Under the pieces are notes generated by a model. It did no database searches and had not been told where the DNA came from. It saw only the letters and a program-made list of their open reading frames with translations. Source: Eledone cirrhosa (Eukaryota). Taken from it: 64,000 nucleotides of DNA. Every line of letters starts with the position of its first letter. The stretch's first letter is position 1. Both the position numbers and the translations under genes were made by a program. Shown here one piece after another: positions 880-60,993 of this stretch. The stretch is taken from contig OZ024743.1 in NCBI GenBank assembly GCA_964016885.1, positions 369,706,001-369,770,000 on the forward strand, in the 5' to 3' direction.

Positions 880-1380
880 ATATGTATATATATATATGTA
901 TATATATATGTGTATGTATGCATATGTATGTGTATATGTACATATATATACATATATATATATACATATACATATATATATATAAAAACTTAATTGTTAT
1001 ATATATATACATATACATATATATATATATACATATATATATATATATATATACATATATATACATATACATATATATATATATACATATATATATATAT
1101 ATATACATATATATATACATATACATACATATATACATATATATATATACATATATATACATATACATATACATATATATACATATACATATATACATAT
1201 ACATATATACATATACATATATACATATACATATACATATATACATACAGATATATATATATATATGTATATATATACATATACATATATATGTATGTAA
1301 AAGGTAAACAGAAATAACACGATCGGTACATTATTTGGAAGGAATATATTAAGTTAACGCTTGATATAGCAGGAAGAGGG

Positions 1381-1416
1381 TCTTAACGTTTCGGACGCTC
1401 GTCCTTCATCAGAAGA
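1381..1416 (-). ncRNA. Minimal hammerhead motif
   Basis: Minus strand reads TCTT-CTGATGA-a GGAC gagc GTCC-GAAACGTT-AAGA; self-complementary AACGTT replaces stem III. Confidence 0.8.
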
Positions 1417-1749
1417 AAGATTGAGAAATAAGATAGATTGAGGGGACGGGCTGGATGGAATTGGAAAAAATGTCTTTAGATAAAAATAACAGGTCCATTC
1501 CTGTTGACAAAACTGTTGGTGCTGGCGTTTTGTGTATAATTTGTTTTATGCACATGTATATATATATATATATATATATAGATATAGATAGGTAAATATA
1601 CACGGGTGTGTATGATTGTGTATAGAAGATTATATTAATAAAAGGAATTCCAACTTTGTCTGATTTACTTGTTTTATTTACAATCCTTTAAAATTATAAT
1701 GGCATTAGAATGAAATAGTATGGTAGAATATTAAATGTTAAGTGTTAAT

Positions 1750-1788
1750 TGAACAAGTACGTTCATGCTTTCGCAATCTTCAGGTTCA
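1750..1788 (-). ncRNA. Hammerhead-like motif with GAAC core variant
   Basis: Minus strand reads TGAAC-CTGAAGA-t TGC gaaa GCA t-GAAC GTAC TT-GTTCA; the identical motif recurs at 45306-45344 and 45418-45456. Confidence 0.65.
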
Positions 1789-2144
1789 TATTCTGTGGTG
1801 ACAGTCAAGTTTGCAATTTTCACATATACATATATACACACGTGTATGTATGTATATATGTGTATGTATATATATATATACATATATGTATATATATATG
1901 TATATATATATATATATGTATATATATATGTATATATATATATATATGTATATATATATATATATATATATATATGTATATGTATATATATATATATATA
2001 TATATATGTATATGTGTATATATATATATATATATGTGTGTATATATATATACATGTGCATAAAATAAATCATACACAAAACGGCAGCATCAACAGTTTT
2101 GTCAACAGGAATGGACCTGTTATTTTTATCTGTTATTTTATCAT

Positions 2145-2180
2145 TCTTCTGATGAAGGACTGGCGTCTGAAATGTTAAGA
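2145..2180 (+). ncRNA. Minimal hammerhead motif (inverted partner of 1381-1416)
   Basis: TCTT-CTGATGA-a GGAC tggc GTCT-GAAATGTT-AAGA. Confidence 0.72.
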
Positions 2181-2317
2181 CCCTCTCCCTGCTATATCAA
2201 GCGTTAACCTAATATATCCCTTCCATATACTGTACCGATTCTGTTTACCTTTAACATACATATATATGTGTATGTATATATATATGTATATATGTATATA
2301 TATATGTATATGTATAT

Positions 2318-57163: not shown

Positions 57164-57254
57164 TCATATACACACACACACATACATATATATATATATA
57201 TATATATACTCATATGTGCCGGGTGGCTTGAATCTCCGAAAAGGAACCTAAGCA

Positions 57255-58415
57255 ATGGGAACCGGGAACGATAATCCCAATTTTCAAAAGGGGAGACAAG
57301 AGAGATTGCTCCAATTACAGAGTGATCTCCTTGTTATGGTTCCTTGGTAAACTCTATGTTAAGTATCTGGCAAATTGATGCAGCGTGATTGTCGAGTCCA
57401 AGCTAGTTGATGAACAGTGTGGTTTTTGCCCCAGATGCTGTACAGCCAACCAAATATTTACACAGTGGCAGGTATTTGGGAAATCGTGGAATCATTGCCA
57501 AAAGGTATATTCTTGTTTTGCCGACTTTGAGAAGGCATATCACCACGTTCATCAGAACCAGCTGTGGAAGGTTGTGCAGGAGTATGAGAACGATGATCAG
57601 CTCCTTGCTACCTTCATGTCTCTATACGAATGCCCAAGTATTTGTGTTCAGATAAATGATGCTAAATCGAAACCATTCAAGATGGGAGTTGGACTCTGCC
57701 AAGGGTGCATACTGTCACCTCTTCTGTTCCTAATTTACATGAACAGGATTCACATACACAAACTGGTTGGAAGTGGTATCATAACTGGCAGGTGTAAAAT
57801 GAGTCAGCTGGAAGTAACGACTTGGTGTTACTTAACTCAACAAAAGATGATCTTTGACTTGCACTTGATAGGTTTGATGCCGAGTGCCGCATGGCTGGAA
57901 TGAAAATCAGTGCTGCGAAAACTGAGACACTCATCCTCTTAAGGAAGCCTGCACAGTGCACTCTATATGTGAATGGAGTTCCACTGAAGCAGTTAGCGAA
58001 GGTCAAGTATCTCTGGCCCATGTTCACGAGTGATGGAAGGCAGGAGGCTGAATTAAGTGCAAGAATTGCAAAAGCTGGTTATCAGAAGAAGGGAGGTAGG
58101 CGTAATAACCAAACTCACTATCTTCAATTCAGTTTCGTGCTAACCTTTACCTATGGTCATGAATCTTGGATAATGACTGAAAGAATACAATTGCGAATAC
58201 AAGTGGAAAAAATGGGATTCCTCCGAAGGGTCTTTGGAGTAATGTTACTCAATAAAGTGCATAACTTGGATATCAGAGAGTCATCCAATTAGAGCGATTA
58301 CTTCTACAATTGAGAGATCACAGCTCCGATACTGTGAGCATGTGGTTAGAATGTCTCAGAAAAGAATCGCTGGACAGATATTATGGGCAAAACCAAGAGA
58401 CCCAGGGCAGACCCT
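57255..58415 (+). mobile_element. RTE-clade LINE RT fragment
   Basis: IIPIFKRGDKRDCSNYRVISL...DEQCGFCP...FADFEKAY...GLCQGCILSPLLFLIYM. Confidence 0.92.
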
Positions 58416-58574
58416 AATCGTTAGGTTGTAAGTTCAATTCCTGGACCAGGCAAGACACTTTGTTTCACGTTGCTTCTTCTACCTGGAGTTGCGACCGATA
58501 GAGAATATTAGCAATTAGAAAGACGAACATAAACATTGTTTCCTTGGTCCAATTTGATGAAAGTCAATCGACTG

Positions 58575-60416
58575 TCGATATTTAATCATATATCTTTATA
58601 ACTTTAATAGGCTTTGATCAGTATTGGCCCAAGCCATGTCTAACTTAGTAGCATCTCATAGCAAAGTCTTTCAAATCAGGATTTGGACACTATGGCCCAC
58701 TCAAAGCTCTTAAAATGTTATCAAAATGATTCAGGAGCTGCGTTAGACAGTCCCTTCCATTATGGAACCCATGCTGGTTGGAGTTCAAGAAAGTGAGGTA
58801 TTCGTGATCTCACCACTCTCTCAAATACCTTAATGATATGAGAGGTGAGTGAGATTCGACGGTAATTTGCTGCAAGGGGCTTGTTTCCTTTTTTGAAAAC
58901 TGGGACAACAGACCGGAACAGAAAGTTTTCAGATATATAACTAGCATCCAGTGAGTTCCTCCACAGATTAGCAAGAGGAGATGCAAGTTGGTGTCAACAC
59001 ATCTTCAGGACACAAGCAGGGAACCTATTAGGGGCTACTGCTGAATTGCATTTAATTTTGTTTATTGCCACTAAGACATTCGGGGCACCAAGTGTTATGT
59101 CCGATATAATGTGTTGAGGATTTAACATCACTGATACAGCCCAGATCAGCCATATCAGGATTGCTGAAAACAGAACAGTATTGTTTCTGCAGTATCTCAC
59201 CCATGGTTTTAGCATTGTCTTGGAGAGTGCCATTTTAATCAATCAGAAGGCCAACAGTGGTGACAGTAACCTTGTGTTTTTTGGGGATTGAATTTGATTT
59301 CCTCAATGGCCCATTTCTCCTCAGCTGTTCTTTGGTTATTGATGATGGCCTTCATGCATTTTTGGAGGTTATATATTTTTTATTCAAGTAGTGTGATGTC
59401 AGTCGAATGTGTGTATTGTTGTTTGCAGTATTTTAGTTTGTTGATTTTTTTTTTGTTTGTTCTCCTTATATTTCTGATAATATTTTTTCTCTTTTGGGGT
59501 TTCTGCACTTAGTTTTGTTCAGATTTTAGTGAAGTGTCTTTTGTACATATGTTTATAACAGTGTCTACAAATATCTCCCAGGATGTTTTGATGTTGATGA
59601 AGATGTGTATGTAAAAGACCAGTCAACATGTGATAGTTCGTTCATGATTGCATCCCAGTTGGCATTATACAGATCCATGTTATCAAATATGTGGGCTGGA
59701 GAGAGGTCATTGGGTTTAGCTTTCAACTGGTGGAATTTCAGGTTACAGAGAACCATGTCATGGTCGGAAAGAAGGGTTGTTTCCACTGTAATATTATATA
59801 TAGTGTTAGTGTTGTTACTAAACACTAGGTTCAAAATGTTTTTCTGATATCTTTTTGGTGCAAGAACAAGTTGGGAAAAGAAAAAGTCATTCATAAAGTC
59901 GAGAAGTGACTCAACTGCTTCTTTGTCAGTGGTTGAGGTGGGAGTGCCTGGTTTCAAACTGTTTGTAGACCAACACAGGGTAGATTGAAGTCTCCCATTA
60001 TTAATATGTTAGAAGAATGGCACTGTTGTATAAAGCACTGTTGAGGCATTCCTTAAAGCACAGTATGGGCATTTGGGGTGGCCTATAGAGCCCAACTACT
60101 ACCAAATCATTGACTTCGTTGTGCACAGTGACTGATTCACAGTAGTCATTGAAGAATGTGATATTTCCATCTGCCATAAAGGAATCATGAACAAAAATGG
60201 CAGTTCCACTCTTCCTTCTGTTGACATGATCTGCACGGATGATTGTGAAATTCCTCACCTTCACTTTGGCATCCAAGTGGGAGCTGTTGAAATGAGTCTT
60301 AGTTAGGATGAAGAGAGGGATGTGTTGTGGATGGTTACCAACCCAATCTTCAAAGAATTGGACCTTCCAATTTTGTGTATTGATTGAAGGGCTGACACCT
60401 TGTGCATTGATTAGAA
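58575..60416 (-). mobile_element. CR1/L2-like LINE relic (APE endonuclease to RT N-terminus)
   Basis: LINAQG...FTIIRADHVNRRKSGTAIFV...GLYRPP...ILNLVFSN...LSDHDMV...NYRRISLTSHIIKVFERVV. Confidence 0.88.
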
Positions 60417-60472
60417 ATATATATATATCCATATATATATATATATTCATAAATATATATATATATATATAT

Positions 60473-60993
60473 CAGAAAGAAGAGTGACACGGTTTGCTAT
60501 ACAAAAAAGGTTTTTAATGTCATTGCTGACAATTTTTTCTCTGAACTGGTAGGTCTAGAGATCGCTACCCGCTTGTTTTCACGTCATTCGATCACCAATA
60601 CAAAGTTGTAACCAGTCAATTCATCGGAGCTTGCGAGAATGAAAGGAATATACAGGCATGGCTACTATATATAGTAGTAATGGCATTCAATCAGAACAAT
60701 AACAACAATACTAACAATGCTAGCAATAAATTATTTGAAATAATCACAACATCAATCTAGGTGGGAAGTATAGTATATCTACGATTTTAGCGTGTAAAAC
60801 TAGCTGACATGAGGCAGATGTATAAAATTGACATGTAAAAGCTGTCATGGGGTGTATTATATATAGTGTAAAGATAAGCTGGTGGCTTTAAACAAGCGGG
60901 TAGCGATCTCTAGACCTACCAGTTCAGAGAAACAATTGTCAGCAATGAGATTAAAAACCTTTTTTGTATAGCAAACCGTGTCACTCTTCTTTC
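60473..60993. repeat. Inverted repeat, ~105-bp arms around a ~310-bp spacer
   Basis: gaaagaagagtgacacggtttgctatacaaaaaagg...gatcgctacccgcttgttt versus its reverse complement at 60890-60993. Confidence 0.9.

Follow-up and report, generated by a model that had tools for sequence, protein, structure and literature searches.

How does a stretch of DNA come to hold hammerhead ribozyme motifs in mirror-image pairs, one on each strand? We address this question in a 64-kb window of the 3.0-Gb, AT-rich genome of an animal, Eledone cirrhosa (contig OZ024743.1, positions 369,706,001 to 369,770,000), where a preliminary description had picked out at least five unrelated families of fold-back, hammerhead-bearing sequences next to (TA)n tracts. 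It proposed that these are independent palindromic retroelements devoid of open reading frames (ORFs), mobilised by the reverse transcriptase (RT) and GIY-YIG endonuclease of Penelope-like elements (PLEs), and offered as an alternative that they are inverted, truncated by-products of Penelope insertion. We find that the alternative is the better reading, with one refinement: the breakpoints are not random and cluster at a likely transcription start. Judged from their sequences, the families that we label A to H are ends of PLEs that have coding sequence for RT and/or GIY-YIG; two extra families are labelled I and J. To explain the mirror-image pairs, we propose that A to H are the 5'-truncated ends of at least eight PLE families, and that the palindromes probably arise afresh with every insertion, out of two cDNAs primed separately.

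Hammerhead motifs in the window and in the genome

Repeats in the window were found by masked self-BLAST because plain repeat finding was swamped by TA tracts. The hammerhead family is not among the best 150 of 232 Rfam matches listed for the window, and these matches are TA-repeat microRNA noise. A strict descriptor of the type-I hammerhead found seven motifs in the window, where 60 local shuffles averaged 0.05 (maximum 1). Together with the cores of families A to F (Table 1), these motifs confirm that type-I hammerheads lie at or near the places where they had been reported. Three features had been overlooked: a canonical hammerhead at 551 (plus strand) in a 505-bp unit, a third E-type motif at 49546 (minus strand) and a half-core palindrome at 2945-3045. 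Of the cases reported as weaker, the one at 44790 retains the 3' half of a hammerhead, its 5' half being lost to truncation. At another, near 60930, the plus arm has only a half motif followed by a tail, but the minus arm holds a full motif (about 60630-60520) with a CCGATGA core, a long loop II and a damaged stem III.

For this genome, such a density is in fact ordinary. The same descriptor found 14 motifs in 20 random 10-kb stretches (0-1 once shuffled), so that the seven motifs of the window compare with 4.5 expected. Extrapolation from these 200 random kb gives about 2 x 10^5 strict motifs genome-wide (Poisson range 1.1-3.5 x 10^5). Exact-pattern matches number 4,494 (family A), 6,569 (B), 10,232 (E) and 12,304 (F), and the reversed controls never match. 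At least five further hammerhead families, several with a palindromic helix III, are present in the random stretches L341-L359 and absent from the window. Loops of about 80 nt sit inside helix II in family H (60520-60630) and in family G (L321-L339), and would be overlooked by short-motif searches.

The reported adjacency to TA repeats also holds, and the proposed TA targeting is supported. Among 120 sampled entries, 30 without a recognisable 3' end were left out; (TA)n with n of at least 4 lies within 30 nt of 63 of the 90 recognisable ends, compared with 5-10% of random positions. Three of eight 3' ends of short interspersed nuclear elements, a comparison of eight ends only, have TA within the same distance.

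GAAC had been admitted beside GAAA as a hammerhead core. All three window copies of family B do carry it, but it is not the norm of the family, whose usual core is GAAA with a palindromic AGTACT; GAAC is a rare change with 103 matches genome-wide. The idea that it marks a spreading subfamily with a dead core was rejected, these matches being mostly single arms. Within the window GAAC, found in about 1.6% of copies, occurs in two insertions 43 kb apart (1587-1820 and 45191-45571) that belong to different subfamilies, which may reflect chance or local gene conversion.

Penelope parents

The parents were mostly recognised by tblastn among themselves together with motifs, rather than with a curated PLE profile. 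In families A, B, C, E and G the repeat is continuous with a parent ORF in which GIY-YIG follows RT. RT and GIY-YIG stand directly upstream of family A, co-oriented, in L287; family B runs upstream into GIY-YIG (Pfam PF01541, E 1.8e-6) and RT at L042, L050, L202 and L205; and endonuclease/RT precede family G, again co-oriented, in 10 of 20 loci. Family E offers a complete copy, L270, in which direct pseudo-long terminal repeats (pLTRs) of 390 bp lie 3.7 kb apart around the ORF. The parent of family C is visible in the window itself, where remnants of RT and endonuclease occupy 6166-8068 and a tailed inverted arm lies to their left. Thus 5478-8453, which had been counted as non-coding, is a PLE with remnants of RT and GIY-YIG. 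For the three remaining families the coding sequence adjoins in inverted orientation. RT and endonuclease do so for family D at L233, L281 and L240 and for family H at L283 and L264 (among the best 14 and 16, respectively, of 20 rows listed), and one PLE ORF, 94-98% identical between loci, adjoins family F in 4 of 30 long copies through four different junctions.

The match to RVT_1 is weak for C and H, and a PDB search with the family H RT gave no match. Between the GIY and YIG halves, inspection by eye showed the two cysteines of a CCHH motif in A, B and C, for instance CIKCPNC..YVGQT in B and LRCSLC..YIGQ in A. The combination of pseudo-LTR and type-I hammerhead is present as well, with direct pLTRs in L270 and hammerheads in all families. 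The proposed link to Penelope RT and GIY-YIG is therefore borne out by PLE parents for every family from A to H. These families differ from retrozymes, which are ORF-less head-to-tail units: coding parents exist, and the pairs are head-to-head.

Palindromes and their two arms

How general are the mirror pairs? In samples taken in genome order (120 rows, of which 19 were dropped as second pair members or duplicated flanks), an inverted upstream partner was found at 16 of 24 distinct loci for B and 15 of 21 for F, but at 11 of 26 for E and 1 of 30 for A. Whether most copies occur as inverted pairs thus depends on the family.

A palindromic query for family B returned 40 palindromes out of 40 with a near-fixed centre, as though palindromes were copied as units; this was a ranking bias, and later B samples are exact-pattern matches taken in genome order. 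Where two of the first 100 such matches lie close together on opposite strands, the pair is always head-to-head, with spacings of 79-1,610 bp and a mode near 104. Genome-wide, 928 B palindromes fall in the modal short size range, and the first 50 of them, including two near-duplicates, form our sample. A tail of about 40 nt is borne by one arm only in 46 of the 50, by neither arm in 4 and by both in none. Exactly one tail is likewise present in 17 of 18 family J palindromes, and inverted copies with a one-sided tail were seen by eye in E and F and are rare in A (1/30).

Could these palindromes be what the preliminary description took them for, ORF-less retroelements transcribed and re-inserted whole as both-strand ribozyme units? 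The narrow size of the 928 palindromes would agree with this, as would the 81-nt gap common to 24 of 50 and the predominance of short forms over long ones, 22 of 30 unselected B arms beginning no earlier than the predicted start site discussed below. However, the shared breakpoint of a fixed unit is not found. Among 45 oriented B copies the centre takes 27 different strings, and arm differences shared between copies (40 intact copies) have the same orientation 24 times and the opposite one 35 times, so that asymmetry between arms is not inherited. The centres of E and F also vary between copies, by eye. Moreover, a PLE parent exists for every family, the palindromes lack a TATA-like box, the predicted folding cost would keep the ribozyme buried in the hairpin, and the A-to-G excess that an edited hairpin template might leave is absent (A>G 0.30 and T>C 0.30 per column). 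We consider copying as a unit very improbable in general and, for family B, largely refuted.

In fact, the two arms of a copy are usually closer to each other than to the rest of the family. At 12 polymorphic columns they do not differ at all in 25 of 49 B copies, compared with 135 of 2,352 pairs drawn from different copies; of 73 doubleton alleles, 10 consist of both arms of one copy, and the rare GAAC stands in both arms of seven palindromes. One-arm haplotypes are numerous, and each comes with palindromes of its own whose centres are not shared; the mirror arm is therefore most likely newly made at each insertion rather than copied with its partner.

The main rival to two cDNAs is self-priming, in which a cDNA or antisense RNA of a PLE bends back at its end to serve as its own template, one tail being trimmed by the endonuclease. 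This mechanism was favoured for palindromes at inverted junctions by Arkhipova 2013 (PMC3846280; here and below, published work is cited from the accessible parts of its text). It agrees with arms that usually share haplotypes and rare alleles and with the existence of second arms as short as 25-35 nt. On the other hand, the commonest B centres would require a loop of 1 nt, and both mirror forms relative to the tail occur (9 versus 7 copies, the two commonest strings). Tailed and untailed ends are both fixed, which matches two RT start sites. Finally, the arms of the intact palindromes L170 and L200 are nearest to different subfamilies (L151, L158 and L180 are ambiguous). These two copies, the minimum of such cases, suggest two RNAs, although ectopic conversion could give the same result. 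On balance we regard self-priming as unlikely, and prefer two separately primed cDNAs.

Palindrome centres and a predicted start site

In long copies of two subfamilies, the B centre is an A located 31 nt behind TATAAAAGG or TATATAAGG. Among 30 unselected B arms, 14 start within -6 to +5 of this A, eight start 8-40 nt after it and eight extend upstream; in the short palindromes, parental sequence upstream of it occurs in 0 of 100 arms. In family F the centres are about 30 nt behind TATAAATA, and in J they are 29 nt behind TATTTAAATA, at a TCAGT/TTAGT initiator-like site. The distance from a TATA-like box to the centre is thus 29-31 nt in three families, and we infer from these motifs that the centre would correspond to the 5' end of the RNA.

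In family E, an octamer, ATTTGCAT, is common to the subfamilies (L092-L109, L270), where it precedes the centre cluster by about 55 nt, and is a possible promoter element of the pLTR. An extra G of the kind that a cap would leave is suggestive at a few B, E and F junctions; it is confounded by the opposite arm, and we make no claim of it. Four contig runs of unknown kind contain no splice joint, and two of them rise steeply in depth across the predicted start; since such depth does not measure copy number, the rise was not used.

Structure and predicted activity of the ribozymes

Stem covariation, on which the preliminary description had made its hammerheads depend, is present in family E. Two-sided changes affect 5 of 15 pairs, a level reached in 0 of 500 shuffles, with kinship uncontrolled, the 5' side of stem I and the core fixed by the search pattern, and two of the pairs coming from one divergent copy. 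The expectation that stem III permits work as a dimer is supported by prediction: in cofolding, the minimum-energy dimer is a double hammerhead for B, D and F, but not for A, C and E. The type-I motif itself is altered in the window copies of B (GAAC) and incomplete in G (half motif) and J (half core).

It had also been stated that transcription in either direction yields a ribozyme. This is true of the letters only: a read-through transcript of a head-to-head palindrome contains the antisense arm first, and the ribozyme arm becomes paired to it. To impose helices I and II on the palindrome costs a predicted 68.5 (B) and 79.4 (E) kcal/mol, versus 3.5 and 7.0 for single arms. Folding would thus bury the ribozyme arm in a duplex, and a both-strand ribozyme is unlikely to act. 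An intact hammerhead seems in any case unneeded to form palindromes, since family J makes the same ones with half a core.

Family I, a candidate retrozyme

The 505-bp unit of family I is of a different kind. Its hammerhead is canonical type-I, with an 8-bp helix I and a full helix III, and its longest Met-started ORF is 40 aa. There are 1,957 genome candidates, of which the best 40 were scored; the 24 loci analysed are the best matches to the near-full unit, a choice that favours long copies. Among them are partial tandems of up to about 1.6 units, and the 3' ends of copies fall at two fixed points some 72 nt from each other, with TA usually following either of them. Head-to-head inversions also occur, with arms that often use different ends and with varying breakpoints. 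A PLE ORF directly upstream and co-oriented was found in none of the 24 loci. Family I is therefore what A to H are not, an ORF-less head-to-tail unit with a type-I hammerhead and more-than-unit copies. Copies run once or twice through the point of predicted cleavage, and for this a template is needed that is circular, or multimeric and uncleaved. We propose family I as a candidate non-LTR retrozyme that bears, by its sequence, the marks of PLE insertion, and PLE machinery likely moves it too. A related fragment lies at 52938-52984.

A model for insertion

To account for the parentage, the head-to-head geometry, the tail on one arm, the usually matching arms and the clustered but varied centres, we envision the following nicking and priming steps. 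The PLE protein would nick both strands of a (TA)n target, and each nick would prime RT at one of two internal start sites, giving one tailed and one untailed product. A precedent exists in vitro, where the PLE of an anole nicks both strands and uses two RT starts that bound the tail (Frangieh 2024, PMC11167929). The source RNAs could come from full-length copies or from truncated ones retaining the promoter. When priming takes place at the sites nearest the RNA 5' end, both cDNAs would reach the transcription start after 60-230 nt and run off there; a junction with 1-4 nt of microhomology, or with a few extra bases, would unite them in a short palindrome. If one primer were instead used at the downstream pLTR, a long inverted form as in C, D and H would result. 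Matching arms would reflect one RNA or one source locus. The resulting palindromes, having no upstream promoter box and a ribozyme buried in duplex, are probably dead ends. The same machinery would insert family I, probably from circular or multimeric RNA.

Several points weigh against this model. The parent of family F is linked to it through inverted adjoining ORFs and not by a continuous copy. Selection for a gap of 66-96 nt makes wider centres invisible among the 50 B palindromes. At several B loci the second arm is only 25-35 nt long and reaches neither 3' end, so that internal priming or a template switch is needed. Furthermore, matching arms fit the snap-back of a single cDNA, or later arm-to-arm conversion, equally well. 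The start site is a motif prediction; the centres of family E cluster with no TATA box at -30, and the Penelope promoter of D. virilis is internal and TATA-less (PMC2377424).

The centres of B, E and F also look like 3' splice sites (CAG), and this leaves room for another explanation, that the centre cluster is a processing site, be it a 3' splice site or an RNA cut, and not a transcription start. A pyrimidine tract in E would fit, pLTRs of PLEs can hold introns (PMC4209133, PMC2377424), and in D. virilis the 5' end of helix I is where the intron stops (PMC4209133). Yet arms retain 2-9 intron-side bases before the AG, depending on the family, and share no constant first exon; and the spacing to the TATA-like box is constant in three families. 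We find processing improbable.

The model of two primed cDNAs can be taken further, on a more tentative footing that we would put at somewhat short of even. A dimeric PLE protein would prime two cDNAs at one TA target, sometimes from two RNAs (as in L170 and L200); run-off at the pLTR start and head-to-head joining would follow, and the same reaction would insert circular family I RNA. If so, the palindromes record a missing step of the Penelope cycle, and family I would give direct anatomical proof of the mobilisation of animal retrozymes by PLEs. As by-products, a single genome would have gained long hairpin loci in the tens of thousands and some 2 x 10^5 hammerheads.

Features of the window

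The features discussed above are collected in Table 1. Family J has a second site in the window (53018-53060), 69 arms in the fetched loci and 7 in the 200 random kb; these one-tailed palindromes of about 100 bp could be a PLE type without a canonical hammerhead. AT-rich inverted repeats lacking a recognisable hammerhead lie at 9461-10671 (head-to-head around a TA tract), 22952-23094 and 36558-36655. A decayed RT/endonuclease-like remnant beside TA tracts at 53757-54600 (minus strand) is probably a further PLE. Tandem arrays occupy 21999-22591 and 30423-31586, with periods of about 40 bp and 64 bp. Finally, an open frame of 430 codons at 23693-24985 (plus strand) begins RLGRRPKR and presumably resembles the hinge exon of a nuclear receptor of the E75/Rev-erb type; it has no Pfam match, and a motif scan for other receptor exons found none. 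The window may lie in introns of an E75/Rev-erb-like gene.

Table 1. Hammerhead-bearing and related features of the 64-kb window (positions within the window; a point marks features lying on both strands).
Feature	Position	Strand	Hammerhead core	Remarks
Family I, ORF-less 505-bp tandem unit with 55-bp partial repeat	313..872	+	551-557	Predicted cleavage after 616
Family A left arm, PLE 3' end, minimal hammerhead	1290..1556	-	1412(-)	GAAA-CG-TT; parent L287
Family B single tailed arm	1587..1820	-	1783(-)	Rare GAAC in core; inside A palindrome centre with TA tracts, CATG on both sides
Family A right arm	2053..2262	+	2149(+)	5' junction as left arm; internal deletion; stem III altered (GAAATG)
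Family J mini-palindrome (2945-3045) and tail	2945..3105	.		Recognisable hammerhead is GAAA/stem III half only
Family C pLTR fragment with hammerhead	3622..3873	-	3808(-)	CCGAAGA
Family D 5'-truncated PLE end	3874..4158	+	4077(+)	CCGAAGA; stem III palindrome ACAATTGT; parent L233/L281/L240
Family C PLE, whole element	5478..8453	+	8271(+)	Core in 3' pLTR
Family C tailed inverted arm	5478..6038	-	5710(-)	Left part of C PLE
Family C broken RT	6166..7357	+		Within C PLE
Family C GIY-YIG-type region	7364..8068	+		Within C PLE
Family F palindrome (22613-22782)	22613..22830	.	22693(-), 22702(+)	Centred at hammerhead 5' edge; right arm tailed
Family G PLE end	44752..44908	+		3' hammerhead half only; truncated inside stem II
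Family B palindrome (45191-45571, centre 45381)	45191..45612	.	45339(-), 45423(+)	Arms 99% identical; tail of about 40 nt on right; GAAC in both cores
Divergent family E copy	49472..49600	-	49546(-)	Stem III palindrome ATGCGCAT
Family F single arm	51215..51345	-	51262(-)	Intact hammerhead; TATA-like box retained
Family E palindrome (51687-51939)	51660..52035	.	51761(-), 51864(+)	Right-side tail; parent L270
Family H inverted pair	60475..61170	.		Long left arm (-), short right arm (+); RT/endonuclease in L283/L264

Comparison with known systems

The elements described here are new families of a known class: publications already describe pLTRs in inverted orientation, tails, a bias toward TA, and hammerheads paired across the two strands. 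PLEs with an endonuclease (EN+) form inverted 5'-truncated copies with a one-sided tail and a (TA)n bias (Craig 2021, PMC8557442), and TATA and initiator-like motifs as well as junction palindromes are described in their pLTRs (Arkhipova 2013, PMC3846280). Our families resemble the accounts in these two sources in their RT with C-terminal GIY-YIG, pLTR hammerhead, head-to-head copies, tail of 30-40 bp and microsatellite bias. They differ from what these accounts present in that the short, pLTR-only palindrome is a dominant product (928 exact cases in one family) and is centred at a fixed distance from a TATA-like box. Tandem and inverted structures of PLEs have been ascribed to undefined features of their cycle (PMC8557442).

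Dual hammerheads 100-700 bp apart on opposite strands are reported in Schistosoma, where they are ascribed to truncated PLEs (Cervera 2014, PMC4209133). The minimal hammerheads of metazoan PLEs described there share with ours a minimal or palindromic helix III, an extra base before helix II and thousands of dispersed copies; by comparison with that account, the density here, extrapolated from 200 kb, is much higher, and G and H have helix II loops of about 80 nt. The closest experimental system is PAc, the Poseidon PLE of Anolis, which cuts AT-rich DNA and extends it on both strands and for whose insertion hammerhead cleavage is dispensable (Frangieh 2024, PMC11167929). In its accessible text, that study leaves the steps past first-strand synthesis open; the genomic palindromes suggest how the two products are joined.

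Family I is to be compared with the non-LTR retrozymes (Cervera 2020, PMC7229834; PMC7761336), whose published features of an ORF-less tandem unit, a canonical type-I hammerhead and more-than-unit copies it shares. It differs from those accounts in the length of its unit (505 bp versus about 300 bp) and in its PLE tails and head-to-head inversions; families A to H are not tandem units. The published link between retrozymes and PLEs consists, in the accessible texts, of co-occurrence and sequence similarity (PMC7761336; bioRxiv 10.64898/2026.07.22.740005), and family I bears on which machinery moves animal retrozymes.

The newer points are thus the anchoring of centres at a start site, the few chimeric palindromes and the 505-bp candidate retrozyme with marks of PLE insertion. 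A literature search, mainly of the available parts of open-access main texts, found no start-site-anchored PLE palindromes, chimeric arms or PLE-tailed retrozymes. If the extrapolation holds, the genome contains some 10^5 hammerheads and very many loci with perfect hairpins of 60-200 bp, which could, when read through, feed RNA editing or small-RNA pathways. With thousands of young palindromes at hand, counting chimeric arms can separate self-priming from two primers. Two primers are already familiar from LINE-1 twin priming, where each of two target nicks primes a cDNA and the two products meet head-to-head via microhomology. However, the twin-primed cDNAs of LINE-1 cover different parts of the RNA, whereas here both can cover the same part, and the outcome is a palindrome.

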